From Minisyncoccota bacterium (GTDB lineage Bacteria; Patescibacteriota; Minisyncoccia; Phycocordibacterales; Phycocordibacteraceae), in contig JALHQL010000002.1 in NCBI GenBank assembly GCA_022841985.1, positions 4,211 to 68,210 on the forward strand: a stretch of DNA of 64,000 nt. The letters run 5' to 3'. Within the stretch, counting starts at the first letter, position 1. Each line of letters opens with the position of its first letter. Below, one piece after another: positions 1-64,000 of the stretch. The notes beneath the pieces were generated by a model. The model saw nothing but the letters and a program-made list of their open reading frames with translations, searched no databases and was not told where the DNA came from. The translations under genes were made by a program, and so were the position numbers.

Positions 1-42
1 CATTGGCAAGGACTAAGGCTAGGACTGGAAAGAAAAAATAAC

Positions 43-3000
43 ATGGCTGGCCTTTTCAAAAACCGAATAATTAGGGACAAACTTGAGAAGTTTGAGATTC
101 CTGATCTTGAGCAAAAGCTGGATATTGTGCGTGCCTGGCACAAAGCATCGCTAGACGGGTCATTGAAGGAGAAAACTGAAACTCAGTGTGAACAAGCATT
201 TAATTCAGATTTCTTCGTAAAAGTGCTTAGCTATGAACCGTTCCCAAACGAGGTCTATACGATCCAGCCAAAGGACAACGTTGAGACAGGTGGTGGTCAA
301 ATGCCCGACGCAACACTTGGCTACTTCACGGGAAAGCAGAAGCGCGTTGTTGCAGTCGTGGAAATTAAGGATGCGAATACATCGCTTGATAAATCGCAGC
401 ATCGCGAGGGTAACTTGAGCCCTATTCAGCAAGCGTTTAAGTATAAGCCGCAGTACAAAGATTGTGGCTTTGTCATTGCCACGAATTTCACTGAGATCCG
501 TCTGTTCCGAGATAATCAGTTGGACTACGAGAAATTTACTCTTGATGAGTTAGTAGACGCCAAGAATGATTACTTCCAGTTCAGGAAATTCCTCTTCCTA
601 CTGTCAGCACAGAATTTTGTAAACGAGCAAGGTCAGACTGAAACAGAGAAATTGCTTTCAGCAATTCGCGTTGAACAGGAAAAGATTACTGCGAAATTCT
701 ACAAAGAGTACAAGAAACTACGAGAGGACTTGATCAAAGACATTGTTGCAAACAACAAGAACATCAAACGCCCTGATTTCTATACACACATCGTTGAAAA
801 GGCGCAGAAGCTTGTAGATCGGACTGTCTTTATTTGTTTCTTTGAGGACTCTGGACTCTTACCTGAGGGGAGATTAGCAGAAGTTGTTGAGTATGCCCAA
901 AAAGGCGCTCTCAACGAGCCTATCTGGGAAACCATTAAGAAGTTTTTCAAAGCCGTTGATGAAGGAAGTGCGAAACTTGGGGTACCCGATGGTTACAATG
1001 GTGAACTTTTTAAACAAGATGAAGATCTGAATAAACTCATAATCAGCGATGAGATTTGTAAGAGTTTTGTTGACCTAACAAAGTTTGATTTTGAGGAGGA
1101 TCTTTCAGTGAATATTCTCGGCCATATTTTTGAGCAATCCATTACGGACTTGGAGAAACTTCGCGATTATTCGGAAAATGTAGAGACGGAAACAAAGAAA
1201 GATGAGAAGCGGAAGAAAGATGGAATATTTTATACGCCCGAATACATCGTTGACCACATAGTCCGAAATTCACTAGGACAGTATTTGCAGGAAAAGGAAC
1301 AAGAGGTTTTTAAAAAACATAAAGTAGATAGCAGACGAATTAAATCTGATGCCACACACGATAAACGCCTAGAGCAGGCATATACGGAGTATCAGATCAT
1401 CTTGCAGGACGTAAAAGTATTGGATCCAGCGTGTGGTTCTGGGGCGTTTCTGGTGAAGGTGTTTGACTTTCTTCTTGCTGAAAATAAGCGGGTTGCGGAT
1501 ATTCTTGCCGAAATTCAAGGAGCACAGAGCTTGTTAAGCACAGACGATTACGTGAAATCCCTGTTGCAAAATAATATATACGGCGTTGATCTCAACCCAG
1601 AAAGCGTGGAGATTACCAAGCTCTCACTTTGGTTTAAGTCAGCCAAGAAGGGACAGAAGTTAATCACCCTGAAAAATAACATCAAGTGTGGGAATAGCTT
1701 GATAGATGATGGAGGCATTACCGCCAGACCCTTTGATTGGAATAAGGAGTTTTCGGAAATTATGTCCAAAGGTGGATTTGATGTTGTGGTTGGAAATCCA
1801 CCATATGTTCAACTCAGCAAGGTAGTAGGTACCACGAAAGAACAGAAAGAATATCTGATCAGAACATACGGGACTTCTGGGGGACGTCTGAATACATTTA
1901 TTTTCTTTATTCACCTCGCCTCAGCATTAGTAAGGCAGGGTGGATACGTTGGCTTTATTGTTCCTAACACCCTTCTGACGCAACAATATTATTGGGAGAC
2001 GCGAAAACTGCTTTCAAGTGATTTGTCTCTTACGCAAATAGTCACCTACCCTTACTTACCATTTTCTGATGCTGTTGTTGAAAACATTACTTTTATTGCC
2101 GTAAAAGGCAAAACGGAAAATATTACGATCTATTCACAATTACCTGATGATCTTTCTGAACTTGCACAGATCAGCAATAGTTCTATCGGGAGAGATAAGA
2201 AATACATTATAGATATACGTAATAACCCAATTTGCCAAAGGATTGATAGCCTAAACTTTACTCCACTGAAAGATCTAGTGAATATAAATCAGGCAATCGC
2301 TCTAAAGGGGGATAAGAGTTTGAGCGTGAAAGATCATTACAGGGATGGTTATTTCAAATTGATTGATGGCAGGAATATAAATCGCTATTCACTAAACTGG
2401 TCAGGAGAATATCTAGAATACGACCTGAATCGTATCCACTCATGTAAAACAAAAGATATATTCTTACAACCAAAATTACTTTTCCGGAGAGTGTCTGCAG
2501 ATCTAATATTCACGTACGATTCCGAAGATTTTTTCGCCCTAAATACTCTTGTTGTTCTTACACCCAAGGAAGGTAAGACAGTGAATCTATTTGCTTTACT
2601 TGCGATTCTGAACTCAAAGCTTATCAACTACTACTACGTAAATAAATATAAGTCCACAAAGAAAGTGTTCTCAGAAATTCAAGCGCGCACAGTTGGACTT
2701 ATGCCAATTCCGGAATTGTCAGCAGCTGATACTCAGGCTCTTGGAGAGAAGGCAAGAAAGTTACTTGAGCTTAACAAAAGTCTTAACTCTGGTCTTGCTA
2801 AAAGCTTGGAACTATTCAGGCACGAGTTGAATATTGAAAAGCTTCCAAACAAAGCAAGTAATTTTGATTTACTCACATATGACACTTTCATCTCTTTGCT
2901 AGATACTGAGCTACCAATAAGTCGCAAGGCAGAGTTCATGGATTTTTTCAACAGTGAGAAAGCGAAATTGAGCGATGTCCGCGCCGAGATAAGAGATTTA

Positions 3001-3069
3001 GAGGAAAGTATTGATGAAAAGGTTTTCTATCTGTATTCAATCAGCGAAAAGGAAAAAGACATGCTATGA
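43..3069 (+). CDS. Type IIG restriction-modification enzyme, MmeI-like single polypeptide (N-terminal PD-(D/E)xK-type nuclease, gamma-class N6-adenine DNA methyltransferase, C-terminal target-recognition region)
   Basis: 1008-aa ORF; AdoMet motif LDPACGSGAFLV; catalytic motif VVGNPPYVQL; N-terminal MPDAT...VVAVVEIKD resembles a PD...ExK nuclease core; about 400 C-terminal residues have no recognised motif (likely TRD). Confidence 0.7.
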   Translation: MAGLFKNRIIRDKLEKFEIPDLEQKLDIVRAWHKASLDGSLKEKTETQCEQAFNSDFFVKVLSYEPFPNEVYTIQPKDNVETGGGQMPDATLGYFTGKQKRVVAVVEIKDANTSLDKSQHREGNLSPIQQAFKYKPQYKDCGFVIATNFTEIRLFRDNQLDYEKFTLDELVDAKNDYFQFRKFLFLLSAQNFVNEQGQTETEKLLSAIRVEQEKITAKFYKEYKKLREDLIKDIVANNKNIKRPDFYTHIVEKAQKLVDRTVFICFFEDSGLLPEGRLAEVVEYAQKGALNEPIWETIKKFFKAVDEGSAKLGVPDGYNGELFKQDEDLNKLIISDEICKSFVDLTKFDFEEDLSVNILGHIFEQSITDLEKLRDYSENVETETKKDEKRKKDGIFYTPEYIVDHIVRNSLGQYLQEKEQEVFKKHKVDSRRIKSDATHDKRLEQAYTEYQIILQDVKVLDPACGSGAFLVKVFDFLLAENKRVADILAEIQGAQSLLSTDDYVKSLLQNNIYGVDLNPESVEITKLSLWFKSAKKGQKLITLKNNIKCGNSLIDDGGITARPFDWNKEFSEIMSKGGFDVVVGNPPYVQLSKVVGTTKEQKEYLIRTYGTSGGRLNTFIFFIHLASALVRQGGYVGFIVPNTLLTQQYYWETRKLLSSDLSLTQIVTYPYLPFSDAVVENITFIAVKGKTENITIYSQLPDDLSELAQISNSSIGRDKKYIIDIRNNPICQRIDSLNFTPLKDLVNINQAIALKGDKSLSVKDHYRDGYFKLIDGRNINRYSLNWSGEYLEYDLNRIHSCKTKDIFLQPKLLFRRVSADLIFTYDSEDFFALNTLVVLTPKEGKTVNLFALLAILNSKLINYYYVNKYKSTKKVFSEIQARTVGLMPIPELSAADTQALGEKARKLLELNKSLNSGLAKSLELFRHELNIEKLPNKASNFDLLTYDTFISLLDTELPISRKAEFMDFFNSEKAKLSDVRAEIRDLEESIDEKVFYLYSISEKEKDML

Positions 3070-4571
3070 AAGCCATTATCTTCGCAAGAGTTTCCACACT
3101 GGAGCAAAGAGAGGCTGGCAATTCAATACCAGCACAAATAACTCGGCTCCAATCGTATTGCGACAGGAAGGGTTTTCAGGTCGTTGAGACGTATAGTTTT
3201 GACGAATCCGCCTATAAAACAAAACGCGACGAGTTTGATAAGTTCCTTGATTTAATCGGCAAAATGAAGGAAAAGGTTGCGGTTTGTTTTGACAAAGTAG
3301 ATCGTCTTTCACGAAATATATTTGATCCGAGAATTGCTTGGCTTTACGAAAAATCAACATCAGGAACGATTGAATTGCATTTTGTCTCTGATAACCAAGT
3401 CATCAATGACAATCTTTCGGCAGGAGAGAAGACTCATTTCGGTATAAACCTCGTGATGGCGAAAGCCTACTCAGATGCCATCAGCGACAACGTAAAACGC
3501 GCGTATGAGAAGATGCGCGCAAACGGTCAATGGACCGGAAAAGCGCCTATCGGGTATCTAAACCAAAAAGTGGATGAGAGAAAGAGCGTGGTCCCGGATC
3601 CGAAAACAGCTCACTTTGTTCGGAAAATTTTTGAAATGTATGCAAGTGGCAATGCTTCCGTAAAGATGATTCGTAATGAAATTGCTGAACTTGGCCTCAC
3701 TAGTTCCGTTGGAAAGCCACTGTCTGTAAGCATGATTGCTCACATACTTAATAATCCTTTCTACTACGGAGAGATGAGATCCAAGGGTGTGTTGTATCCG
3801 CACAAGTATGAACCGCTAATCTCAAAGCATTTGTACAACCAGTGCCAGATGGTTTTGAAAGGATGGCATACAAAACGAACCCAGTATGCCGCCAAGCCGT
3901 ACATTTTCAGAGGGCTATTGCCGTGTGCTAATTGTGGTTGCCTAATGAGTCCTGAGACGGCAAAGGGTAAATTTATTTACTACAGCTGCACCAATGCTAA
4001 GGGAATATGCAAACGGGTATACGTGCCTGAAAAGGTGCTCCTGAAGCCAATCCAGGAGGTCTTAGAGAGGTTCCAGCGGTTATCCCAAGAGGTCATAGAC
4101 GAGGTGGTGAATGGGATGAAGAAGGCCGGAGGTGATCAGGCTGAATTTCATAGAAAGGCTATCGCGGGCATGAGGGAAGAATACGATCAGATCCAGGCGA
4201 AGTTGGATCGGTATTTAGATCTTGTGGCTGATGGGCTCTTGAGCAAACAGGACTACGAGAAAAAAGTTGTTGCCATAAAGGATAGGCAGCAAGAAATCAA
4301 TTACAAACTGGAGGCCTATACCAAAGCCGATGAGACCTTCTACCTGACGGCTGGAAGGGTTTTGAGCTTGGCCAAAAGAGCCAAGGATATTTTTGATAGT
4401 TCTGAACCTGACGAAAAACGCGCCTTTCTCAACTACTTACTTCAGAACCCTAGGGTGGATGGCAAAAAACTCATATTTTCCTTGCGTTCTCCGTTCAATC
4501 ACATCCTAGAATTCTCCGACTGTTCTACTGGGCTCCGGGAGCAAGATTCGAACTTGCAACCAACGCCTTAA
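3066..4571 (+). CDS. large serine recombinase (integrase/transposase-type; resolvase catalytic domain, recombinase domain and Zn ribbon)
   Basis: N-terminus MKAIIFARVSTLEQ carries the catalytic Ser; Cys cluster CANCGC...YYSCTNAKGIC; start ATGA overlaps the RM gene stop (translational coupling); the 3' end of the ORF reads through tRNA-Asn, so the true C-terminus is uncertain. Confidence 0.8.
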   Translation: MKAIIFARVSTLEQREAGNSIPAQITRLQSYCDRKGFQVVETYSFDESAYKTKRDEFDKFLDLIGKMKEKVAVCFDKVDRLSRNIFDPRIAWLYEKSTSGTIELHFVSDNQVINDNLSAGEKTHFGINLVMAKAYSDAISDNVKRAYEKMRANGQWTGKAPIGYLNQKVDERKSVVPDPKTAHFVRKIFEMYASGNASVKMIRNEIAELGLTSSVGKPLSVSMIAHILNNPFYYGEMRSKGVLYPHKYEPLISKHLYNQCQMVLKGWHTKRTQYAAKPYIFRGLLPCANCGCLMSPETAKGKFIYYSCTNAKGICKRVYVPEKVLLKPIQEVLERFQRLSQEVIDEVVNGMKKAGGDQAEFHRKAIAGMREEYDQIQAKLDRYLDLVADGLLSKQDYEKKVVAIKDRQQEINYKLEAYTKADETFYLTAGRVLSLAKRAKDIFDSSEPDEKRAFLNYLLQNPRVDGKKLIFSLRSPFNHILEFSDCSTGLREQDSNLQPTP

Positions 4572-4604
4572 CAGGGCGCTGCTCTACCGTTGAGCTATCC
4601 CGGA
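4529..4604 (-). tRNA. tRNA-Asn (anticodon GTT), CCA encoded
   Basis: Minus-strand sequence TCCGGGATAGCTCAACGGTAGAGCAGCGCCCTGTTAAGGCG...GCAAGTTCGAATCTTGC TCCCGGA G CCA: 7-bp acceptor stem TCCGGGA/TCCCGGA, T-loop TTCGAAT, anticodon loop CTGTTAA. Confidence 0.85.
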
Positions 4605-4704
4605 ATATGTACTGTCACCCTCCAAGCGGAGAGCTTATGGGCATTCTAGCTTAAACACCCTTCATCGCAAAGCCTATAGGTAACAGGTACGAGGTATACT
4701 TTTC

Positions 4705-5519: not shown

Positions 5520-6872
5520 TTATTTCGAAAACTCCACGTACGACATCTCCTTCTTACCTTCGGGTATCACACGCTCGATGATGAATTGACCGTCTTTAAT
5601 TGAGGCTTGAGTTATCTTTATGCGCTTTCCGTTTTCAAAAAAATAAGTGCCAATAGTATCGGCGTACGCACGGTATTTATTCCAATTCACTTCCGCTGGA
5701 GCATCCAGTGAGAGGAGGCCGTCCTCTTTCTTTAGTTTGCGTGCCCGAGTTGCAAGCGATGAATCTTGCGGAATCGGTATGACATCGCCGCGCAAATATG
5801 CAGACAGCGTATCAACAAGTAGAGAAGCGCCCATCCCGATAAGCCGCGGGCGCAGCTCGCGCGCGGTCTCACTGGGTCCAATTTTTGTCGATTCCTGAGC
5901 GATAATGTCTCCTGCGTCCAATTCTTTCACCATCTTCTGTATGCTTACGCCAGTTCTATCATCTCCAGCAAGCAATGCAGCTTCAAGAGGTGTTGCTCCG
6001 CGATGCTTCGGCAAAAGCGAGTAGTGGACATTGAAGACTCCTTTGGGAAAAACGCTAATAAGTGTCTCGGGAAATATTTTGCCATACGCGACGACGAGAG
6101 CGTAATCGCATTTATATTTTTGAATCATGGCGATTGTTTCGGCATCAAGCTTTTCCGGAGTTACGACGGGAATATCATGCGCAAGTGCAAATGTTTTTGT
6201 TTCGGACGGCGTGAGAGTCAAACCACGACCTCTCGGCGCATCTGGAGAGGTCACGACGAGATCTGGCACGAGGCCATGCTCGATAAGAATCGCGAGCGTA
6301 TCGCTTGAGACTTTCGGTGTTCCGAAATAAACGAAATTATGTTCTGACCCGTGATGGATGCGAGCAAGATTCTTAGCATGATCGATGAAAAGGATTCCAT
6401 TTAAGTGGTCTATTTCGTGTTCAAATATTTGCGCCATAAGACCGCCGGCGCCGCGCTCCACATGAGAACCGTTCGGTCGGCGCGCTTTAATGGTGGCGCG
6501 TTCGTGACGGTGAGTAATGCCGTAGATACCGCGAACTGAAAGACATCCCTCATCGGTCTTTGCGCGTTTGCGAGAAGTCTTTACGATTTCTGGATTGATA
6601 TACACCTCAATCTCAGGCGCTAGGGGAGGAGGGGGTACACCCTTTGCAATTTTCTTCTGGAAAGGAGATGTCCTGTCTTTTCTCACAATAAAGAGACGAT
6701 ATGAAACTCCTATTTGCGGCGCAGCGAGCGCCACTCCCTCAGGTTCTTTATCGAGAGCCTCTTCCATATCTTTGATAAGACGCGTGAGTTCGGGCGTACC
6801 GAAAAGCCCTTCAGGTACGGGTTGGGCGATCTCTCGAAGCACTGGGGTACCATCTTGCACAATCTCTTTCAT
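5520..6872 (-). CDS. def/fmt: fused peptide deformylase (N-terminal) and methionyl-tRNA formyltransferase (C-terminal)
   Basis: N-terminal 175 aa carry Def motifs GVALAAPQIG, EGCLS, HEIDHL; C-terminal 275 aa carry the Fmt formyltransferase core (HYSLLPKHRGATPLEAALLAGDDRTGVSIQKM) and a C-terminal tRNA-binding-like domain; single 450-aa frame without stop. Confidence 0.8.
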   Translation of the reverse strand: MKEIVQDGTPVLREIAQPVPEGLFGTPELTRLIKDMEEALDKEPEGVALAAPQIGVSYRLFIVRKDRTSPFQKKIAKGVPPPPLAPEIEVYINPEIVKTSRKRAKTDEGCLSVRGIYGITHRHERATIKARRPNGSHVERGAGGLMAQIFEHEIDHLNGILFIDHAKNLARIHHGSEHNFVYFGTPKVSSDTLAILIEHGLVPDLVVTSPDAPRGRGLTLTPSETKTFALAHDIPVVTPEKLDAETIAMIQKYKCDYALVVAYGKIFPETLISVFPKGVFNVHYSLLPKHRGATPLEAALLAGDDRTGVSIQKMVKELDAGDIIAQESTKIGPSETARELRPRLIGMGASLLVDTLSAYLRGDVIPIPQDSSLATRARKLKKEDGLLSLDAPAEVNWNKYRAYADTIGTYFFENGKRIKITQASIKDGQFIIERVIPEGKKEMSYVEFSK

Positions 6873-8567: not shown

Positions 8568-9593
8568 ATGTCTTTCTTCTCTCCAAAGCTCGGCATAGAT
8601 CTCGGAACCACTAACGTACTCGTCTTCGTTCCCGGCAAAGGCGTTGTTATCAACGAGCCATCGGTTGTAGCCGTAGGGAAGACTCTTGATAAACGAGGAG
8701 GCAACACCATTCTCGCCATCGGCGCCGAAGCAAAAAAAATGATCGGCCGCACTCATGACGACATCATCGCGTACCGCCCGATGAAAGACGGCGTTATCGC
8801 GAACTATCGCGTAACTGAGGCTATGCTTCGTTATTTTATGAAAAAAGCACTTGGCCGGAACCCCTTTAAGCCAACCGTACTTGTCTCGGTCCCTGCGGGG
8901 GTCTCTTCGACCGAGAAGCGAGCGGTCATTGAAGCAGCGATAAAAGCCGGCGCAAAAAACGCCTACGTAGTGAAAGAGCCAATACTTGCGGCTATCGGTG
9001 CCGGTATCCCTATTCATGAACCGATGGGACGTATGGTGATAGATATCGGTGGCGGCACGATTGATGTCGCTGTGATCTCACTCGGGGGTATCGTTGCTTC
9101 GACGAGTGTGAAGTGCGCAGGCGACCGACTTGACCGCGCAATCATCGATTACATTAAGAAACAGCATAATCTTGCTCTTGGTGATAAAACTGCTGAAGAG
9201 GTGAAAATTAAAATTGGTGCCGCAGTACCGATGAACGAAGAACTCACTATGCAGGTCAAGGGCCGTGACCTCATGAGCGGCTTGCCACGCACTATAAATC
9301 TCTCGACCAATGACCTCGTACAAGCGATGGCGCGGGAACTGCGCGAGATGACTCAAGCGATACGCAAAGTGCTTCAAGAAACGCCCCCAGAACTTGCAGC
9401 GGACATTATCGATAACGGTATCATCCTGACGGGCGGTTCCTCACAATTGCGCCAGATGCCGGAGCTCGTCTATCGCCGCACGGGTGTTATGGCAAAACTT
9501 GCGACAGATCCGTACTATTGTGTCGCGCGAGGCACTGGTATCGCGCTTAAGCATTTAGATACGTATCAGAAAAGCATTTTAGCAAAACAATAG
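8568..9593 (+). CDS. mreB: rod shape-determining protein MreB
   Basis: [14 protein letters not shown] phosphate-1 motif, DIGGGTIDVAV phosphate-2; ORF track begins at 8532, the likely start is MSFFSPK at 8568 (8556/8559 possible). Confidence 0.85.
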   Translation: MSFFSPKLGIDLGTTNVLVFVPGKGVVINEPSVVAVGKTLDKRGGNTILAIGAEAKKMIGRTHDDIIAYRPMKDGVIANYRVTEAMLRYFMKKALGRNPFKPTVLVSVPAGVSSTEKRAVIEAAIKAGAKNAYVVKEPILAAIGAGIPIHEPMGRMVIDIGGGTIDVAVISLGGIVASTSVKCAGDRLDRAIIDYIKKQHNLALGDKTAEEVKIKIGAAVPMNEELTMQVKGRDLMSGLPRTINLSTNDLVQAMARELREMTQAIRKVLQETPPELAADIIDNGIILTGGSSQLRQMPELVYRRTGVMAKLATDPYYCVARGTGIALKHLDTYQKSILAKQ

Positions 9594-11419: not shown

Positions 11420-12507
11420 TGAGTATTATAATCTTCCTAGTTGTCATTATTGCACTCATCATAGTGCATGAGTTTGGACATTTCGTCGTGGCAAAGCTCT
11501 CGGGCATGCGTGTGGATGAATTCGGTCTCGGATATCCGCCGCGCGCACTCACTATCGCGACCATCGGTGAGACGACATACACACTTAATTGGCTGCCTTT
11601 CGGCGGTTTTGTGAAAATTTACGGTGAAAATGGAGAGGGTACGGATCCGCGGGCATTCGGTAAGCGTCCGCGTATTTTACAGGCGCTCGTACTTATCGCA
11701 GGCATCACGATGAACCTTCTCCTTGCCTACGTACTTATCACCGGGACACTCATCATGGGGACACCGCGTGCGTTGTCGGAGAGTGAGCTAGTTAATGCTA
11801 AGGATGTGGAGCTTATGGTGGCAAATGTGCTCCCAGGTACGCCCGCATCTCTTGCAGGACTACTCCCTGGCGATTCGATTACACATGCGAAAGTTTCTGG
11901 AACAGAGTGGCAAGCCGCTGATCCTGAAAGTTTTTCGAAATTTATTGCTTCCAGTAATGGCAGCAAGATAACTCTTCATATAAAACGTAACGGGAATGAA
12001 GAAATCATTGACGCAACACCTGCAGTCGGCATTGCGTCAAACGACTCTTCGCGGTTCGCGCTCGGAGTCAGCGTTGCAACTGTTGGCGTCGTACCACTCT
12101 CAATTGGCGATGCAATTATTGAAGGCGCGCAACTCACCTGGAATGCCACTAAACTAACTGCGATTGGACTCAGCAATTTTTTCTACAGTATCCTCACTTT
12201 ATCGGCTGATCTTTCACAAGTCGCGGGCCCTATCGGTATCGCGGGGGTGGTTGGCTCAGCTTCTTCTCAAGGAGTAAGCGACCTTCTTTCTATCATGGCG
12301 ATTATTTCCATAAATTTGGCGCTCATTAATCTTATTCCTATTCCTGCACTTGATGGCGGCCGACTCCTTTTCGTGATTATCGAGAGTGTCATTCGCCACC
12401 CAATCAAAGCAAACATCGCGAATTCACTCAATATGGTCGGCTTTGCCTTCCTCATCCTCCTTATGGTTGTTGTCTCAGCGCACGATATTTTCAAAATTGT
12501 CGGATAG
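11419..12507 (+). CDS. rseP: RIP metalloprotease RseP / site-2 protease (M50) with PDZ domain
   Basis: HEFGHF zinc motif in first TM, central PDZ-like region, C-terminal LDGG motif. Confidence 0.8.
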   Translation: MSIIIFLVVIIALIIVHEFGHFVVAKLSGMRVDEFGLGYPPRALTIATIGETTYTLNWLPFGGFVKIYGENGEGTDPRAFGKRPRILQALVLIAGITMNLLLAYVLITGTLIMGTPRALSESELVNAKDVELMVANVLPGTPASLAGLLPGDSITHAKVSGTEWQAADPESFSKFIASSNGSKITLHIKRNGNEEIIDATPAVGIASNDSSRFALGVSVATVGVVPLSIGDAIIEGAQLTWNATKLTAIGLSNFFYSILTLSADLSQVAGPIGIAGVVGSASSQGVSDLLSIMAIISINLALINLIPIPALDGGRLLFVIIESVIRHPIKANIANSLNMVGFAFLILLMVVVSAHDIFKIVG

Positions 12508-33838: not shown

Positions 33839-33922
33839 GCGTCGGTGGCGGAGTGGTCAATCGCAACAGGCTGTAAACCTGTCGGACATAGTCCTACGGA
33901 GGTTCGAATCCTCCCCGACGCA
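33839..33922 (+). tRNA. tRNA-Tyr (anticodon GTA), long variable arm, CCA not encoded
   Basis: GCGTCGG...CAGG CTGTAAA CCTG, long variable arm TCGGACATAGTCCTAC, T-arm GGAGGTTCGAATCCTCC, acceptor 3' strand CCGACGC + A. Confidence 0.85.
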
Positions 33923-33950
33923 CTTAAAATTTCTGTGGTATCGTAGTCAC

Positions 33951-55903: not shown

Positions 55904-56296
55904 TTAACGATAGGCATTGGTCGTGGTAGCAACATTTGAAGAACCTACCGAGAGTGGAGCGACGTTAATGACCCTGTTCGAAGTTGGACTATAGAGAAAT
56001 GCTTTTTGCGCATTTGTGAAGATAAGTACTTTATCGCCAGCCTTCGCGTTGACGAAGAATTCCTGATCTTTTAATTTCTCCGGATTGGAGACAGTTGCGA
56101 CCGTTGGCGTCTCGCCTTCAGGGAGCAGAATGAGCTTCCCCACAGACGCCATAAGCGATACTACTTCTTCCTGTCCGATAGGTGGACGATTCGGTGCGAG
56201 CACTGCCGCCTGATGATAAAAATAATATGCAGTAGCGCCCATACCAATGAGAAGCCCGAATAAAATTATCGGTAGATATTTTTTAAAATCTATCAT
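55904..56296 (-). CDS. hypothetical membrane-anchored protein
   Basis: N-terminal TM PIILFGLLIGMGATAYYFY; start taken at MIDFKK (56296). Confidence 0.4.
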   Translation of the reverse strand: MIDFKKYLPIILFGLLIGMGATAYYFYHQAAVLAPNRPPIGQEEVVSLMASVGKLILLPEGETPTVATVSNPEKLKDQEFFVNAKAGDKVLIFTNAQKAFLYSPTSNRVINVAPLSVGSSNVATTTNAYR

Positions 56297-56325
56297 GCCA
56301 GTGTAATGCCACATATCATACCACG

Positions 56326-57333
56326 CTATATCCCGTACTGATTATTAATTTTCTCGTAGACAAACTTTGAAATTTCGGCAATTGTCTTTTGAAGTAAGGC
56401 GGTTTCACTTCCGCGCGTCATGACGCAGAGCAGATATGGATGATTTGGATAATATATAATTCCACAGTCATGCAATTGTTGTAACTCATCCCCAAATTTT
56501 CGTTCTCCAAATTTATGTGCGATCGGGATAGCACTCGGTACACCCGCCCGTAGACCATAATTGAAATAGGTCTCCGAAAGAAGTCTGAGCGCACGCTCTG
56601 AATTTGTGCGTGAGAGATAGGATGCATTAAAAAGAACTCTGAAGAAAATACTGTACTGTTTCACCGAGATCTTGCTTGAGGGGTCTGTCAGAATTTCGGA
56701 ATCTATACCAACTCGTCTATACAATTCGACCTGCTCAGCGATAGGCAACCCCTCGTAGAGGAGCGCCATTGCCTGATTGTCAGAATATTTAATCATACGC
56801 ACCACCAGTTCATCGACAGTGTATGTATGCCCTAATTCTATATGTTGATCGGGCAATATATTTTGTTCATCCGGCAACAATGACGAACTGGTCTTGAATA
56901 CGATTTTTTGATTGAGGAAATTGAGATTCTCTTCCGCATGACCCAAGTAGGTCATCATAATAGGGACCTTCAAGAGGCTCGCTGGAGCAAATGGAATATT
57001 CTGATTAATACCTATAATCGGCCCGTTATTAAGATCGCGGAAATATACAGCAATTTCAGACACCTCTAATTTCTTTTTTAGACCCGTTACAAATGCGGTC
57101 AAATCTAACGAGAAATCTTCCTTCGAAGAAGCGATGGTATCGGCTGAAACTTCACATTCAAGTAACGGATTGGTGAATTCTTTTAGACCCGAGCGCACTT
57201 GACCTCTGTCACCATGCTGGCGACTCCCACAGTCATTCGACATACTAAAGACAATTCCTCCGCCAAGCATGAGCATGCATGCGCTCCATACGAATAATTC
57301 CCATGAAAAACGCTTTTGGAGCATGGTTCTCAT
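56326..57333 (-). CDS. serine beta-lactamase-fold protein (class A-like; KTG replaced by KFG)
   Basis: N-terminal TM/signal, SxxK (PASLLKVP), SDN (KYSDNQA), third motif HKFGE. Confidence 0.5.
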   Translation of the reverse strand: MRTMLQKRFSWELFVWSACMLMLGGGIVFSMSNDCGSRQHGDRGQVRSGLKEFTNPLLECEVSADTIASSKEDFSLDLTAFVTGLKKKLEVSEIAVYFRDLNNGPIIGINQNIPFAPASLLKVPIMMTYLGHAEENLNFLNQKIVFKTSSSLLPDEQNILPDQHIELGHTYTVDELVVRMIKYSDNQAMALLYEGLPIAEQVELYRRVGIDSEILTDPSSKISVKQYSIFFRVLFNASYLSRTNSERALRLLSETYFNYGLRAGVPSAIPIAHKFGERKFGDELQQLHDCGIIYYPNHPYLLCVMTRGSETALLQKTIAEISKFVYEKINNQYGI

Positions 57334-57360
57334 TATAACTACGGATATGCGAACACGATT

Positions 57361-58092
57361 TTATGAACCAATATGGAATGGACGAACATGTAAGTCTAAT
57401 ATAGGGCGCACATCTTTCATTGGAAAATTTCTGTTTCCAAAAGCGATTGGGGAAACTGGAGAGCTCGTACAGCCGCCCGGTGAAGCATGACTGTAAAACG
57501 CTACGTCAGTAGGATCTTTAGGAATGGTTTTATCTAGAGTATAGAGAGATTCTGCGGATTGATAAACGTTGGTAGAAGCATAGAATGCGGTAGCCTCTGA
57601 TAGTCCTTGGCCGTGATAGGCTTGACCGCTGCAATCAGAGCTTTCAAAATATATTGGACTTTGAGTAGATACGCCAAGGTGGGGTCCAAAGCTCCCGTTA
57701 ACACTTACAGCTACAATAACCCCTAGATTCTTTTCAAGAATTTCAAAACTATCTGGAAAGGGCGCAGTACTAGTTATGTATCCAATCACTTGATCATTTG
57801 CATCGTACAGTTTGGCACCACTACCCTCAGGACCCTGAGGGCCGATAGGCCCTTGAATTCCCTGTGGGCCTTGAGGACCTTCAATATTAAACGTGACAAG
57901 TTGCTCATTTGAACTGCACGCCTGTTTGGCGAAACCAGTACCAATGATATACGAGACCCCGGATTGCTTTACGCACATGCTAATTTCTGTACCGGCTGCG
58001 TGCGAAAATGACCAGGCACTCAAGCTCAGTACTGCTGTGACTATCGCCAGCACTATAACTTGTGTCTGATTGATAGAAATATTTTTGAACAT
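57361..58092 (-). CDS. secreted protein with collagen-like Gly-X-Y repeat segment
   Basis: signal peptide; GPQGPQGIQGPIGPQGPEG (six consecutive GXY triplets). Confidence 0.5.
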   Translation of the reverse strand: MFKNISINQTQVIVLAIVTAVLSLSAWSFSHAAGTEISMCVKQSGVSYIIGTGFAKQACSSNEQLVTFNIEGPQGPQGIQGPIGPQGPEGSGAKLYDANDQVIGYITSTAPFPDSFEILEKNLGVIVAVSVNGSFGPHLGVSTQSPIYFESSDCSGQAYHGQGLSEATAFYASTNVYQSAESLYTLDKTIPKDPTDVAFYSHASPGGCTSSPVSPIAFGNRNFPMKDVRPILDLHVRPFHIGS

Positions 58093-58145
58093 ACTGTGTT
58101 TAGTTACCGAATAATCTTATTCACAAATATACCACGCCTGTATAA

Positions 58146-61100
58146 CTATGGATTGGCCGGGGACGCTTCTGTCGGAGGAGGAATCGGTTCTGGAGTTATT
58201 TCTGGTGTCGGGACTACAGTCGGCTCTGGGCTTGTCGGAGGAGAAGTTGGTTCGGGCGTCGGTTCGAGTGTAGTCGGGGTCACTGAAGATTCTAAGGTGG
58301 GGATAGGAGTCACCGTAGGTTCTGGAGTTGGTGTCGGTTCTGGTGTAGGCGTTACTACGGACGATGTCGTTGTGGAAATATTGACTGGAGTTGGTTCGGG
58401 CGTAGGCTCAGGTGTCGGTGTCAGTTCTGGTGGTGTCGGTTCTGGTGTAGGCGTTACTACGGACGATGTTGTTGTAGCGGTCGGAGAAAGAGTTGGTTCC
58501 GGTGACATGCTTGTCGCGACTGGCGGTGGCGGAATATCTGTTGCGACTGGTGCGACGACTTGATCGAGTGAGAGAGGTACCTCTTCAGAATTAAATGTCT
58601 TTGCTCCTTTCACTGCGAGCGCCATCCAGCTGAATTGAATATCGGCAGTCGCGGGTTTATTGATAAGCACGGTGAAGCCCTTCGTGCTCTTGTCAGTAAT
58701 AAGATAGCGAACATCATCAGCAAATATGGCTTCAGCGGCAGCAGAGGTCAGTGCAGTATTGGTAGCTGTATCAAGAGAAATAGAGGTATGTACGATCGGC
58801 TGCTCAAGATATTCTCGATCGAAGGTGACGCTTACTTTCCTACTTCCCTTCTTCACCACCGCAAATCCGGCAGTATCGGTAGTGAAGTATGGCCGACCGA
58901 TGAACACTGCATCCCCGCCGACGAAGAGATTCCCAGAGGAATCAAACGACGCGACTGGCGTGGACGACGCATCCGTACTGGTATTGAATAGTGCAAATTG
59001 CGTCCCAGTCGCAAGATTGAGTGAGATACCAGCGGCAGAGACCGCCGCAATATTACTCACGGTTAGTGTGTCACTGGTCAACTGCGGTGTAATTATTTCA
59101 AACGCTGAACTTATACGGTCAGTGAAGATTTCCGAGCTCACCTCACGATTTGCTCGTGTCTCTTTGAGGTTCTTCAAAAACGCGAGGATATTGGACCTGC
59201 GCATGGCGGCCTGGTTATCTTGCGTGAGCGGTATATTCGCTATCGCAAGTCCTTCGGCAGAAAGGTCCGTCGTCGATGCTGCCAAAGTAGAAGGAAGTGC
59301 GTCAATTGAGAACCCTGCTTCTTGCATCACAACACTGATAGATTCCCCACTGTAGTCAACGAGATTTACAAACACCATCACCGTTCCGCACTTTGTCGTT
59401 GGGAGACTTCCCATACCCTCTACAGGACAAGCCGTCGCAGCGCTCTCATTGAAGTCTTCAAGCGCTTTACCCAGCACACGACCAGCCTGGGTCGCACGCA
59501 TGGCATATCCGGAAATAGAAGCGGAGGTGAGAACATCGCCCGCTCTTATAGAGCCGTTCTCGTTACTTACCTTCACCGGCACACGCCCGATAAGACCGAT
59601 TGGGTAGGAATTTTCCGTATACGCACCCGCGATAAAGCCCGGCTCGGTCGATACCACGCCGAGAACATTGCGCTGATACTGACCGGTCGCTTTTATGACT
59701 CCTTGTGGCGTATTTGGATCAATCATCACCACCTCGCCAGGCATGAGGACTTGAGTGGATGTGTAATTTTCTGCCAAGTCGGCGCCGCCGCTGTAGAAAC
59801 CACCGTTCGCCGCAGCATAGATGTTCCCGTCTGAGCTCACACGCATCATGTTACGACCATTGCTCTGAAGATTGAGGAGGTCTTGGCCATTATTCAATGC
59901 GAACTGGAAGACCGTCGGCGTGCTGACTGTCTTATACGGATAGACCATGCCGGCGCCGCTGTTTACCACGCCGTCGTTCACTTGCCACGATGACGGGAAG
60001 TCACGGCGGAAGTTGATTTTCACCTGTGCCCATGTCTCACCGCCTGTGTTGAAAATACTGCTTGAAGGTTTGCCGATAGTGGACCAGCTGGTGGTTGCCA
60101 AGTTCGCCTGGGAGGTGCCGACGCGTGCTGCCATCGAGACATAATTATCAGCCGATTGTTTCCAACTAAGCATCGCATTTGCCGCAAGCGCCGGCACGGC
60201 AATTTGTTCAGAGGTGTACTGGCCATCCGGATACCAGCCGGCGTCATAAATCATAACGCTGTTGGTACCGTTACCCGCGATGATGACGAACTTGCCGTCA
60301 GGGCGCTGGAAGGCAACCGCTCCTGGACCTATACCGGTTGGCAAAACTGGGCCAACTACAGTGATTCCGAGTTGACTTACACCGGAAGCTGCGGACGCCG
60401 CTGGTCCTGTGCCCGCAGGAATAATAATGTTCGTCGTTACAGCATTAGTTCCATTATTTCCGTTCAATTGTAAGAACGTGCCGTCTGGTCTTGGGATGAT
60501 GAGTCCTCCTCTACCGGCATTGTTTGTTAGTCCTGGTGCGCCAATTGAGCTTGCTCCGCTATCGGGATTGATGATGTTGGTGGTAAGTTGATTTGCTCCG
60601 GCAATAATTTCCCAGAACCCATCCGCTCTCTGGAACGAATACGCGCCGCATCCCGGGAGGGTAGTTGTGAGTGGAGCACCCTGCGAGAACATCTTAGACC
60701 TCGGATTATAATTGAATGTGGTTGTCGTACCGACACCGCCATCTTGAGCGCCAGGAAGAAACTTGTATATGCCGTTTCTAAGTGGGATTGCTAGAGAGCC
60801 GCAGTTGACACGTGCTGGTTGGTTACCTGGACCTGGCAGGTTAAATGGGATGTCCGGACCAGAAAGCATGGTCATACCTGCCACATCGCGCACTGGATCA
60901 TAGATAGAAGTCTTTATTCCTGAAATCGATAAGACAGTCGATGACGCTGTGCCATGCACGATGGTATACGTGCCATCGGTGTTTGGGATCGACAAGGCTC
61001 CGGCTCCGGCATTTCCAGAGAGGTTTGGTCCGTTCGTGAAGATGTTTGAGACAGGGTCATAAATATTGGTTTTATTGGATACAGCGGCAGTGGTACTACC

Positions 61101-64000
61101 CATGACGATGAGGAATTTACCGTCGGGAAGTTTGAGTGCAAAGCCGCCGAGACCATTTGCAACAGTCGGAGCATTACTTCCCGACTGCTTCGAAAACGTC
61201 TGCGTATTTGGGTCATAGAGAGTGGCATTCACCGAAGGTGTGGAACTCGATACGAGAATCACGAAGGTCTTGTTCGGGCGTGCAATGACTATCGTACTTG
61301 AGGTCGCATGCACCACTGGAAGATTAGCGTGCGCTGTTGAGAAGTTCCCGAGGTAATAAGGAAGGGTTAATGCGGCGGTAGTGAGCGGAGTCGTGGTACC
61401 TGTGAGACGTCCGAGCGGGAGGTAGACACGATCGGAGAGTGTTTCAGCTTTGTTCAGAACCGGACCGGAGCTATCGGTCTGCGGGGCAGCGGAATTTGCA
61501 CTCGGCAAATTGAAAGCGAAGTTGTCGCGTCGAAGAAAGGCTGAATTATCTACAACCAGTTCAAACAAGCTCGGTGAGAAATATTCGAGCGGAACCATCG
61601 TCGACGAGTCCTTTTCAGAGAAAACTCCGCGGTCATAGATAGATTTTTTCGGCACCGGACGCGTGAAGTTCACCGTAATCTGCAGACAATTGTCAGTCGT
61701 ACCTGCGGGACGAATAACGTCGCCTGAGTTAAGAATTTCTCGATCAGTTGCTCCGGAGAGCGCGGCTATCGTACATGATCCGGCATCCGCAGCGTTCACC
61801 GAGCGGACAAGGAACTGCAAACTTGACGTGGCGTTCTGACTGCCTGCCATGTCTTTTTGGATATCAGCGCCCCACCGGAGTACCGATGAGGCATTAAGTG
61901 CGGTCGAGTATATGGCTTCTGTTTTATATTGTGACCCTGTGCCGTTCATCACAAGACCGGTGCTGAAATTGTTTGCGGTAGTACCACCACCGCCAGTGAG
62001 TATCTGCCATGAGCCATCGGTGCGCAGGATAGAAAGTGCGCCTGTGCCTATATTGTTAGTGTTCGTGCCGGCAAAGAAGAGGTCGCTGTTTGGATTATAG
62101 ATATATGTATTGGGATTACCGCCGCCGACAAGAATAAGGTACGTCCCATTTTGCATCGGAATGGCATGCGCTCCGACACCAAGTGCCGTCGCAGGACCAT
62201 TGCTGGTTCGACAGGTGAAGATATTCGCGATGGGATCATACAGCGATGAGGCATTCGCCTTTGAGAGCACCACGTACTTCCCGTCTGGACGTTTGAGCGC
62301 GACCGAACCAAGACCGTTTATTTCACAACCTGTACCAAGATCTGGGCCGTTGATAAATGAACCGGTGGAAGTCGCCATATAAAGTGAGGTGGTGGCTACG
62401 TTCACTCCGCCCGCGACAAAAAGTGCTGCAAAGCCAGTGGTGCTCGATGCTACAGGAATGACGAGTGCTCCTTGCCCCGACGTGGTGGCGACCGGCCCTA
62501 GTTGGAAAGTATCTGTTATTGGGTTATAGAGCTGGGTGGCATTCGTGCCGTTACCGTTTGTGAATATATAGGTGCCGTCTGGCCGCAAGAAAGAGACAGT
62601 GCCGGTGGCGACTGCCGTCACCGCGACGCTTGCACCGACGGCGAAATAACCCGACGGATCGACCAGAGAAGTGGTGGTGAGACCGCCACCGTGAACGACG
62701 CGATACTGTCCGCCAGGGCGAGGGAACGCTAGTGAGCCTCCGGCCACGACACCAATCATCGTTGAAGTGGTCGCAGTGAAGGTACCTCCCGTGCTACTTG
62801 CCGTGTTTGAGTCATAGAATTGAATGACGTTTGTACCGCCACCGTTAATAATCATGTACCTCCCGTTCGCTGCTGCAAGAGCGATTGCTCCGGTACTGAT
62901 AGCCGACCCGGCTGCCGTCTGACCGCCGGTGGTGACAGTGCCGGAGCCGTTATTTGGCACAGTACCCTCCGATTGTCTCAATTGGCCATTCGCATTTGTG
63001 AGCTTGTCCCCCACCGTACCGAGCGCGAATTCGGCAGTCGTGTTTCTGACGATATTGCTATCTGCGCCATTGATTGTGAGCGCACCATTATTTGCAACAC
63101 TAAATTTATCTACCCCGCCCTGCTGAAGAGTAAGAAGTCCTCCGGCGCCACGCTGGTCGATAATTGCAGCTGCGATGACCGCCGAAGTACTTGAGGCAGT
63201 CAGCGTCGCCATCGGAGAAGAACTGCCGACACCGAGACGACTATTTGTCTTGTCCCACGTAAAGTTGGTAACGGCATCAAGCGCATTGCCCGTATTGAAC
63301 TGTATATTCCCCGTACTTCCTGCCGCGGTTGCGGCTCCAGCATTGACGGTGCATTCTGTTTGTCCGGTACCGTTTATACAGTTTATTCCGGTGCCGAGGA
63401 AAGCGAGAGTTGAAACTTGCGTGAGCGTTCCTTGCGTATCGTCGGTTATTGTCGAGTACCCACCGCCGCCTGCAGACGAGGTAGCTACAAACGCGAGACC
63501 CCCTGTCACATTTGACCACCCGAGTACTTGTCCACCTGTACCGACACCATAGAGACTTGAAGTCGCCATAGGTGCAGTATTTCCTGTTGCAGCATTGCCA
63601 AGAACACCTGCAGCTTGTGACCCATACGACGTGGTATTGCCAGAGGAGGTGATGACACCACTGAGGTTTGCATTCGTCGTGACGGTGCCGGCATTGCCAG
63701 AGATGCTCATGTTCTGGGTGTTTGTCCACGTATTGGTGTCAGCAAGAAGTGTGGTGGAAGCAACCACGATATTTGCCGAACCGTTGAAGGAGACACCGTT
63801 GATAGTGCGAGCGGTTTGGAGTGTGGTGGCGGTGCCTGCATTGCCACCGATGGAAAGAGAGGAGGTAGCGACTTCAACAAGTGCACTGCCGGCACTGTTG
63901 GTATAGAGGAGTCGATTGCCGGTGATGGATGAGAGGCCGGTGCCGCCGTTTGCAATAGCGACAATACCCGTGACATTTCCTGCGGTACCGCCGATGTTGA
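58146..64000 (-). CDS. giant surface protein (more than 1950 aa, N-terminus beyond the window): propeller-like repeat array, conserved central domain, Pro/Thr-rich C-terminal tail
   Basis: the ORF-track M at 63767 is an internal GTG; the frame stays open to 64000; about 12 repeats of the pattern RPDG-Y-I-GGG-IYNP-F; C-terminal (PTPE)n tail. Confidence 0.7.
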   Translation of the reverse strand, partial: NIGGTAGNVTGIVAIANGGTGLSSITGNRLLYTNSAGSALVEVATSSLSIGGNAGTATTLQTARTINGVSFNGSANIVVASTTLLADTNTWTNTQNMSISGNAGTVTTNANLSGVITSSGNTTSYGSQAAGVLGNAATGNTAPMATSSLYGVGTGGQVLGWSNVTGGLAFVATSSAGGGGYSTITDDTQGTLTQVSTLAFLGTGINCINGTGQTECTVNAGAATAAGSTGNIQFNTGNALDAVTNFTWDKTNSRLGVGSSSPMATLTASSTSAVIAAAIIDQRGAGGLLTLQQGGVDKFSVANNGALTINGADSNIVRNTTAEFALGTVGDKLTNANGQLRQSEGTVPNNGSGTVTTGGQTAAGSAISTGAIALAAANGRYMIINGGGTNVIQFYDSNTASSTGGTFTATTSTMIGVVAGGSLAFPRPGGQYRVVHGGGLTTTSLVDPSGYFAVGASVAVTAVATGTVSFLRPDGTYIFTNGNGTNATQLYNPITDTFQLGPVATTSGQGALVIPVASSTTGFAALFVAGGVNVATTSLYMATSTGSFINGPDLGTGCEINGLGSVALKRPDGKYVVLSKANASSLYDPIANIFTCRTSNGPATALGVGAHAIPMQNGTYLILVGGGNPNTYIYNPNSDLFFAGTNTNNIGTGALSILRTDGSWQILTGGGGTTANNFSTGLVMNGTGSQYKTEAIYSTALNASSVLRWGADIQKDMAGSQNATSSLQFLVRSVNAADAGSCTIAALSGATDREILNSGDVIRPAGTTDNCLQITVNFTRPVPKKSIYDRGVFSEKDSSTMVPLEYFSPSLFELVVDNSAFLRRDNFAFNLPSANSAAPQTDSSGPVLNKAETLSDRVYLPLGRLTGTTTPLTTAALTLPYYLGNFSTAHANLPVVHATSSTIVIARPNKTFVILVSSSTPSVNATLYDPNTQTFSKQSGSNAPTVANGLGGFALKLPDGKFLIVMGSTTAAVSNKTNIYDPVSNIFTNGPNLSGNAGAGALSIPNTDGTYTIVHGTASSTVLSISGIKTSIYDPVRDVAGMTMLSGPDIPFNLPGPGNQPARVNCGSLAIPLRNGIYKFLPGAQDGGVGTTTTFNYNPRSKMFSQGAPLTTTLPGCGAYSFQRADGFWEIIAGANQLTTNIINPDSGASSIGAPGLTNNAGRGGLIIPRPDGTFLQLNGNNGTNAVTTNIIIPAGTGPAASAASGVSQLGITVVGPVLPTGIGPGAVAFQRPDGKFVIIAGNGTNSVMIYDAGWYPDGQYTSEQIAVPALAANAMLSWKQSADNYVSMAARVGTSQANLATTSWSTIGKPSSSIFNTGGETWAQVKINFRRDFPSSWQVNDGVVNSGAGMVYPYKTVSTPTVFQFALNNGQDLLNLQSNGRNMMRVSSDGNIYAAANGGFYSGGADLAENYTSTQVLMPGEVVMIDPNTPQGVIKATGQYQRNVLGVVSTEPGFIAGAYTENSYPIGLIGRVPVKVSNENGSIRAGDVLTSASISGYAMRATQAGRVLGKALEDFNESAATACPVEGMGSLPTTKCGTVMVFVNLVDYSGESISVVMQEAGFSIDALPSTLAASTTDLSAEGLAIANIPLTQDNQAAMRRSNILAFLKNLKETRANREVSSEIFTDRISSAFEIITPQLTSDTLTVSNIAAVSAAGISLNLATGTQFALFNTSTDASSTPVASFDSSGNLFVGGDAVFIGRPYFTTDTAGFAVVKKGSRKVSVTFDREYLEQPIVHTSISLDTATNTALTSAAAEAIFADDVRYLITDKSTKGFTVLINKPATADIQFSWMALAVKGAKTFNSEEVPLSLDQVVAPVATDIPPPPVATSMSPEPTLSPTATTTSSVVTPTPEPTPPELTPTPEPTPEPTPVNISTTTSSVVTPTPEPTPTPEPTVTPIPTLESSVTPTTLEPTPEPTSPPTSPEPTVVPTPEITPEPIPPPTEASPANP
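58330..58475. repeat. two 44-bp near-identical direct repeats (43/44), 102 bp apart, inside the Pro/Thr-rich tail-coding region
   Basis: GGTGTCGGTTCTGGTGTAGGCGTTACTACGGACGATGT(C/T)GTTGT at 58330..58373 and 58432..58475. Confidence 0.8.

Follow-up and report, generated by a model that had tools for sequence, protein, structure and literature searches.

How does the open reading frame (ORF) of a recombinase come to end inside a tRNA gene? The question is raised by a 64,000-nt stretch of a Minisyncoccota genome (contig JALHQL010000002.1, positions 4,211 to 68,210 of the forward strand; called the window in the following), near the left end of which a large serine recombinase (LSR) gene runs into the opposite strand of a tRNA-Asn gene. 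We conclude, with good though not full confidence, that positions 1 to ~4530 of the window are the right part of a small integrative element which was inserted by its LSR at the extreme 3' terminus of this tRNA gene. If the attachment site of the element (attP) lies inside the 3' end of the integrase gene and the crossover takes place at the tRNA terminus, an overlap between ORF and tRNA would result as a by-product, without any rebuilding of the tRNA.

The LSR ORF in its integrated-state reading (501 aa, 3066..4571, plus strand) follows a Type IIG restriction-modification (RM) gene of 1008 aa (43..3069, plus strand), the start codon of the former overlapping the stop codon of the latter as ATGA (gctATGAaa, 3066-3069). 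Both ORFs, their identities and this coupling are as described in a first-pass annotation made from the sequence. Downstream, the LSR frame enters an intact and intronless tRNA-Asn(GUU) gene on the minus strand, which was detected by Rfam (RF00005, body at 4533..4604, 71.7 bits, zero non-standard pairs flagged) as well as by ARAGORN (tRNA-Asn(gtt), 4529..4605). The overlap, previously put at about 40 nt, amounts to 43 nt with the ARAGORN coordinates and to 39 nt with the Rfam body, i.e. 13 codons from L490 to the stop. This stop codon, TAA at 4569-4571, corresponds to A37-U36-U35 of the tRNA read in antisense.

With Pfam, the LSR shows the domains Resolvase (PF00239, E = 4e-19, residues 3-156), Recombinase (PF07508, residues 179-265) and Zn_ribbon_recom (PF13408, residues 280-331), and its PHROG match is integrase (E = 3e-76). 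Across 34 aligned family members, R8 and S10 never vary, nor do the zinc-ribbon cysteines C287, C290 and C308, and C315 is almost invariant. The profile of these 34 members aligns with the N-terminal catalytic domain of TP901-1 integrase and, over residues 175-472, with the C-terminal domain of A118 integrase. Judged by its sequence, the protein is a large serine integrase, combining the catalytic, Recombinase and zinc-ribbon domains that define this class. An identity as Ccr recombinase was rejected, all NCBIfam scores being far under the cutoffs (CcrB 117 bits vs 900, CcrA 61 vs 700, CcrC 56 vs 900).

The DNA that carries these two genes is strongly foreign in composition. The GC content of positions 1-4528 is 0.416, compared with 0.489 +/- 0.012 (minimum 0.465) in 110 equal-sized segments of the remainder, and the tetranucleotide distance is 0.347, compared with 0.150 +/- 0.024 (maximum 0.264); both values lie far outside the range of the remainder. 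To the right, the tRNA-Asn gene adjoins a block of core housekeeping genes (DUF167, hpf, a def-fmt fusion, murA and MreB), as had also been claimed, and the arrangement of tRNA-Asn with DUF167-hpf-def/fmt-murA is syntenic in relatives. Among the nearest hosts, def-fmt is 75-82% and murA 81-93% identical; the closest relative of the host is L088 (loci are given by our running numbers), with 93% for murA and 82% for def-fmt. The LSR of the window is absent in the nearest hosts (L082, L086, L088, L090 and L091), and a look for empty tRNA-Asn sites in related genomes, which had been proposed together with the initial claim, yielded LSR-free sites of the attB type (host attachment site) in L088, L086/L087 and L091.

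In L084 (def-fmt 75% identical), the same DUF167/tRNA-Asn site is occupied by an unrelated serine recombinase of 569 aa with 24% identity (L084:12066-21347), whose cargo consists of HsdS and a pair of AAA_15/SMC_N ATPase and UvrD helicase that is Gabija-like by domain content only. A second assembly of this sequence, L085, ends just short of the tRNA 3' terminus. Judged by its occupants, the tRNA-Asn site resembles a hot spot at which defence islands insert. Two distant hosts with only 35-36% identical def-fmt proteins, L001 and L010, carry LSRs that are 59% and 46% identical to that of the window, respectively, a discordance between host and LSR identities that speaks for a hot spot at the site and not for vertical descent.

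The rival explanation that survives best, albeit as an improbable one, takes the RM and LSR genes for a domesticated or decaying relic, i.e. vertically inherited residents that no longer form a mobile unit and have possibly lost their left end. Three Saccharimonas genomes do keep the same LSR-tRNA-Gln locus with 93-96% identity, and a possible degraded remnant lies beside the same tRNA in L086. In the window no left element/host junction (attL) is visible, and no near-identical copy was found elsewhere, yet both ORFs are of full length with their catalytic motifs present. The cargo differs among occupied sites in related hosts, and neither the strongly foreign composition nor the absence of the LSR from the closest relatives, with closer LSRs in distant hosts, fits long-standing residents.

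A scan of species-representative genomes for homologues of the LSR yielded 80 loci with 33-59% identity (81 counting the window). The hosts are Patescibacteria (Saccharibacteria, Paceibacteria and others), Rickettsiales including Megaera, other Alphaproteobacteria, Dependentiae, Bdellovibrionales, Berkiella and Bacteroidota. At its end the LSR runs onto a complete, convergent tRNA gene in 60 of the 81 loci; the tRNA is Asn in 30 cases, Gln in 13, Asp and Arg in 4 each, Ser in 3, Pro and Glu in 2 each, and Ala and Trp in 1 each. Seven further loci are cut off by the contig edge, and in three of them the first part of a tRNA is still visible. The register of the LSR relative to the tRNA 3' terminus is identical in 55 of 56 loci; taken together with the frequency of convergent tRNA genes, this shows that the overlap is not due to chance.

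The antisense of CCA, TGG, forms a Trp codon in 50 of these loci, the window having GGG (Gly489) instead. In the shared register, the antisense of A37-N36-N35 is a stop codon for the anticodons of Asn, Asp and Arg(UCU), which leads to the modal overlap of 42 nt. The tails of the LSRs vary with the host tRNA even among near-identical enzymes, reading WRE before the stop in L057 and WRERRGSNPRPHA before the stop in L059, so that the tail is a by-product rather than a conserved functional peptide; a function for it seems unlikely from these sequences. One Megaera genome (L077:10001-17600; L047) contains two elements of this LSR family ~6 kb apart in opposite orientations, at tRNA-Arg(acg) and tRNA-Asp, the second of which is 94-97% identical to the tRNA-Asp element of Ca. 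Megaera polyxenophila.

Where the element ends and the host begins was determined by comparative mapping of junctions. The elements of L057 and L059 are 97% identical over 6.9 kb, whereas their tRNA-Asp genes differ at ~14 of 77 positions (counted by eye), including compensatory changes in the acceptor and anticodon stems. Similarly, the 95% identical elements of L066 and L067 are located at tRNA-Ser(gct) and tRNA-Ser(cga), respectively, and their identity ends after TGGCGGA. Seen from the host side, the tRNA-Asn exon sequences of the window and of L086/L087 agree completely in the 35 + 35 nt that were compared. The site reads ...CTCCCGGAG/CCCAGTAGAACAG in the window and ...CTCCCGGAG/CCAAGAAAAATAG in L086/L087, where a terminator hairpin follows and the LSR is missing; the LSR-free sites of L088 and L091 read ...GCGGAG/CCCAGACTAGG and ...CTCCGGAG/CAAAGGG. 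The similarity of the window to LSR-free sites stops 1-5 nt beyond the discriminator base. A block of identity, CTGGGCTCC (4528..4536), which covers the discriminator, the last acceptor bases and the CC(C)A trailer, is common to the L088 site and, from 4531 rightward, to that of L086. On the strength of these alignments, the element/host junction is placed within this block, at the tRNA 3' terminus.

Within 10 kb upstream, most loci contain neither a repeat of at least 20 nt of the tRNA 3' part nor a displaced T-arm, but short cores only. As elements and tRNA genes do not match, LSR-free sites share the tRNA of the window and a long repeat is missing, the tRNA body is host DNA, from which it follows that the last 12 LSR codons and the stop (L490-P501, LREQDSNLQPTP; 4533..4571, plus strand) are read from the antisense strand of the host tRNA. 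The element-side arm of attR (P arm) would occupy 4500..4527 on the plus strand, within the last conserved LSR codons, by analogy with the attP-like junctions of L002, L003, L007 and L019, in which the P arm is the 3' coding end of the LSR. The shared core measures ~5-9 bp in the lineage of the window and 7-19 bp in relatives. Since attL sites show TTG-CTCC or TGG-CTCC and attR sites nearly always TGG-CTCC, the crossover, with its putative dinucleotide, probably lies within G/CTCC, near the discriminator and the last acceptor pair.

The same comparisons dispose of the part of the first-pass annotation that did not stand, namely that the att core reconstitutes the tRNA and that the 3' segment of the tRNA recurs as a long direct repeat at the other end. 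In such a classic island, the element would bring ~40-50 nt of tRNA 3' half, with the crossover in the anticodon or T-loop, and the displaced host half would form the repeat at the far end. We consider this very unlikely and largely refuted. The ORF does stop exactly in the anticodon loop, and its modal overlap of 42 nt resembles the anticodon-loop sublocation of tyrosine integrases, but the stop is accounted for by the fixed register and the antisense of A37-N36-N35. An imperfect tRNA-like repeat of 33 nt occurs upstream in L046; against it stand the absence of longer repeats in most loci, tRNA bodies that co-vary with the host and not with the element, and a window tRNA whose 3' exon equals that of the LSR-free L086, with similarity to LSR-free sites reaching the tRNA terminus.

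One pair of loci deserves separate mention here. L052 and L053 are 99% identical for 11.5 kb, host and element included, and diverge at position 11506 inside tRNA-Asn, just 5' of the anticodon stem, as a crossover at that place might lead one to expect. In L052 the remainder of the tRNA is missing, which could stem from another insertion in the tRNA or from a join made during assembly. We rejected this divergence as an anticodon-stem crossover because host and element are both identical in the pair, the point of divergence being a separate event.

That the tRNA is cargo of the element, or that the recombinase acts as an invertase or resolvase at the locus and not as an integrase, is disfavoured and hardly to be expected: serine recombinases do include invertases (the PHROG DNA invertase match has E = 4e-17) and mobile elements can carry tRNAs, but this tRNA-Asn is syntenic with DUF167-hpf-def/fmt in relatives without any LSR, the protein has the full three-domain LSR architecture with an A118-like C-terminal domain, and no inverted att pair is present in the window.

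The integrative-element reading also makes sense of sites found in other loci. On the LSR strand, 5.2-10.7 kb upstream, attL-like sites consisting of a variable and unrelated AT-rich B arm, GCTCC or GCTGG and a P' arm were found in L003, L004, L005, L006, L009, L021, L022, L040, L046, L061, L065 and L072. The P' arm loosely mimics a tRNA acceptor/T-arm (consensus ..TGGAYRYRTTTAGAAC). Matches to the composite motif number 16 in the upstream sequence on the same strand (0.59 Mb) and 8 at the ends of LSRs, compared with 5 in 1.77 Mb elsewhere. In L002, L003, L007, L011, L014, L019 and L028, the LSR ends without a tRNA in a junction of the form P-core-P' (e.g. CAACCTATTTGG-CTCC-GCTTACTGGACGATGTTAGAAC), which we read as attP or as a tandem junction. 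When attL and attR of L004 are combined, the predicted attP matches the junctions of L002, L003, L007 and L019, and the predicted attB resembles the LSR-free sites. In L007, an attL-like site is located near position 50, and behind a P-core-P' junction at 9440 comes the left-end gene of another element. This contig shows no terminal overlap, so that a circular form was rejected; it looks like two elements in tandem, and the layout suggests tandem arrays.

No match to the attL-like core with P' motif exists anywhere in the window. Its start was considered as the exact attL and rejected, since the element interior upstream of the RM gene (1..42) only weakly resembles the P' arm of L003 and shows no P' motif match. 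Considering the missing attL, the size of related elements (5.2-10.7 kb) and a conserved gene, f1, which precedes the RM gene in relatives, the element continues to the left of position 1. The view of the RM and LSR genes as the edge of an integrated element extending leftward, already taken in the first-pass annotation, is thus borne out.

We propose the following mechanism. The attP would be made up of the P arm, formed by the last conserved LSR codons, a short core and the P' arm at the far end of the element, and its core, TGG/GGG plus CTCC, would represent the antisense of CCA, discriminator and acceptor end. Recombination of attP with attB, the tRNA 3' end, would leave the entire tRNA body in place. 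After integration, the LSR ORF would leave the element, continue on the antisense strand of the host tRNA and stop at the first stop codon of its register, here the antisense of the anticodon. The observed B arms are unrelated AT-rich flanks. Beyond the single locus, we tentatively suggest that the LSR may belong to an uncharacterised and widespread clade of serine integrases specialised for tRNA 3' termini, a possibility which we take seriously without yet favouring it. Such enzymes would mainly recognise the half-site towards the tRNA (acceptor/T-arm), whatever sequence lies opposite, with a tRNA-mimicking P' arm and an attP within their own last codons.

What would such elements transport? 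In related elements, the LSR is preceded on its own strand by genes that include those for an HTH_3 regulator, an M78/IrrE peptidase, a SpoVG-like protein and f1 (~375 aa). Replication genes of other lineages are PrimPol-DUF3987, DnaA_N/replisome-organiser with DUF6362, or an O-like/DnaD-like initiator. The f1 family is present in most of these elements (e.g. L096:3109-4242) and has 937 homologues, almost all without annotation. Three of 27 members match Rep_trans or Phage_CRI (E = 3e-6 to 1e-8), and an AlphaFold model (mean predicted local distance difference test score 67) gave no fold match in the PDB. A role of f1 as rolling-circle initiator or relaxase in replication or mobilisation is only a lead, drawn from these matches. 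By analogy with relatives that share the RM-LSR module and have f1 immediately 5' of the RM gene, the part of the element that is missing on the left is very likely to start with an f1 homologue. A prophage reading was rejected: the family is nearly absent from IMG/VR, where a scan with its profile returned one partial match, and related elements contain only replication, regulator and defence genes.

The product of 43-3069 matches REase_MTase_IIG in PADLOC (E = 4e-109, residues 4-700) and Eco57I, N6_Mtase and TaqI_C in Pfam, with MmeI_N as a weak match below the cutoff. The motifs PD...EIK, DPACGSGAF and NPPY are legible in the translation, and the GC content of the gene is 0.402. According to its sequence, the protein is a Type IIG enzyme in which a single polypeptide unites an N-terminal PD-(D/E)xK nuclease with an N6-adenine methyltransferase of the gamma class and a target-recognition domain. 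BREX PglX was rejected as an alternative identity (NF033452, 124 bits vs a cutoff of 500; single-gene context without brx neighbours).

A metagenome scan with the RM protein yielded loci with homologous RM genes of 49-73% identity. The order f1, small ORF, Type IIG RM, LSR is found in L093, L096, L099 and L100, and the RM stop and LSR start overlap as ATGA in L093, L096 and L100, as they do in the window. In related elements, the place directly upstream of the LSR is a variable slot with differing contents: Type IIG RM in the window and the four loci just named, Type III RM (Mod and Res) in e.g. L003, L004, L006 and L015, Type ISP RM in L029, a Type IV enzyme in L010 and HigB in L024. The Type IIG gene would thus sit in a swappable defence slot immediately 5' of the LSR, translationally coupled to it, and is predicted to act most likely as defence and addiction cargo.

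Several points weigh against our interpretation. The left end of the element is outside the window, so that its attL, size and completeness were not seen, and with the closest LSR being 63% identical and a near-identical copy not found, recent mobility of the window's copy is unproven. No record matched the RM and LSR proteins exactly when a leftward extension of the contig was sought. Sequence comparison cannot fix the exact crossover, and the left boundary of L057/L059 does not cleanly fit a G/CTCC-type core. The attP-like junctions of L003, L011, L014 and L019 lie inside long chromosomal contigs and call for tandem arrays or a second integration route, direct support for tandems coming from L007 only. 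No candidate for a recombination directionality factor was identified; small conserved ORFs of relatives are the SpoVG-like f5, f99 and f109. Finally, the function of f1 is weakly supported, with three of 27 members matched and no fold match.

Some observations at the tRNA gene and its surroundings are of interest in their own right. The window has CCCA rather than CCA after its tRNA-Asn (4529-4533), and CCA is not encoded for its tRNA-Tyr (33839-33923), so that a CCA-adding enzyme must be at work in the host; most related loci have an encoded CCA behind the discriminator, supplied by the P arm of the element. On the host side, a consensus scan gave a promoter-like site upstream of tRNA-Asn (TTGCGA-16-TAGAAT, 4643..4670, minus strand), a weak pattern match only. 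Group I introns split the anticodon loop of tRNA-Asn(GUU) in close relatives of the host, the tRNA-Asn of the window being intronless. The RF00028 scores are 83.5 bits for L088:3920-4560, 71.2 bits for L086:3481-3869 and 45.8 bits, below the gathering threshold, for L001:1846-2490, and L026:2444-3004 is a weak match; the intron insertion of L088 holds an ORF with an HNH motif. In L086, the 3' end of the LSR-free tRNA-Asn adjoins a 420-nt segment (L086:3870-4300, also in L087), which contains a 77-aa ORF and is bounded by a P'-like arm (GCTCCGAGTGGTGGACGAAGTTAGAAC) and a similar arm in inverted orientation (GTTCTAGTGTCCACGAGGGAG). This segment may be an element relic or a non-autonomous mini-element.

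Further to the right, def-fmt (5520-6872) codes for a fusion of peptide deformylase and methionyl-tRNA formyltransferase of 450 aa (PF01327, PF00551 and PF02911), a fusion that is kept in thousands of Patescibacteria homologues. In the region 55904-63767, a low-GC patch (0.43-0.44 at 56-58 kb) holds a gene of the Beta-lactamase2 family (56326-57333, minus strand) between two ORFs without Pfam match, and an adjoining ORF of 1873 aa (58146-63767, minus strand) has almost no domain match.

Unidirectional integration of DNA is mainly done with large serine integrases, which, to our knowledge, have been thought to avoid tRNA genes; their targeting of tRNA genes is almost unreported. Of the islands with a serine integrase (S-Int) predicted by TIGER, 14 of 297 cases were in t(m)RNA genes, which the authors called unreported and flagged as needing experimental proof (Mageeney et al. 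2020, PMC7192596), and the serine recombinase of Paracoccus phage vB_PamS_Pami6 was predicted to use tRNA-Met (PMC6536676). These are computational predictions; unlike in the present family, no site anatomy, clade or host range was described for them. The large LSR catalogue of Durrant et al. (2022) has zero occurrences of the term 'tRNA'. Searches for serine recombinases and tRNA together with Patescibacteria, Saccharibacteria or Rickettsiales found nothing relevant, with incomplete coverage, so that a prior description is possible. Taken as a single locus, the element is an ordinary mobile island at a tRNA gene, while the recombinase clade, the site anatomy and the host range appear uncharacterised.

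If the clade exists as proposed, it would represent a second and mechanistically different way to use tRNA genes as safe and conserved landing sites, with no duplication of the tRNA and a seemingly free choice of sequence on one side. This would explain the spread across phyla with reduced genomes, the switching between isoacceptors and the tandem arrays. Its members would carry small defence islands back and forth among Patescibacteria and intracellular bacteria, and through them one could approach the horizontal transfer of defence genes in three groups whose mobile elements are poorly known, Patescibacteria, Rickettsiales and Dependentiae. They would also be candidate integrases with a naturally universal landing site, the attB being already there in most genomes. 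For the window itself, the odd overlap of gene and tRNA is explained, and 1-4.5 kb is marked as foreign DNA.

Among known systems, the streptococcal integrative mobilisable elements, with a serine integrase and a MOBT relaxase of the Rep_trans type, resemble the present elements in their size below 15 kb, the LSR at one end and a Rep_trans-like protein; this last assignment is weak for f1, and the streptococcal elements target protein-coding genes. In the phages with integration-dependent immunity (mycobacteriophages BPs and Brujita), attP is likewise located in the 3' end of a coding sequence, and integrated and excised forms differ in their tails. These phages, however, use tyrosine integrases, and their tail change has a demonstrated regulatory role, whereas near-identical LSRs bear very different tails here (WRE vs WRERRGSNPRPHA before the stop).

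The tRNA islands of tyrosine integrases (sublocation classes of Williams 2002; Islander/TIGER) share with the present element the integrase gene at the tRNA-proximal edge, a tRNA that stays functional, one tRNA serving as hot spot for different islands, and unoccupied sites in relatives. They differ by the type of recombinase, as the window's element has a serine recombinase and a crossover at the tRNA terminus with a core of ~5-9 bp and lacks the defining repeat that rebuilds the 3' part of the tRNA. SCCmec, with CcrA/CcrB, is similar in that an LSR inserts an island with cargo right at the 3' end of a conserved housekeeping gene, which is not inactivated thereby, and in the occurrence of tandem arrays; CcrB is also the best NCBIfam match of the window's LSR, its 117 bits being far under the cutoff of 900. 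In contrast to SCCmec, the target here is a tRNA terminus instead of rlmH/orfX, a single recombinase is present, the integrase ORF spans attP, and the hosts are Patescibacteria and intracellular bacteria. By analogy, SCCmec is the closest match in working principle, and the tRNA island of tyrosine integrases is the closest in genomic role.

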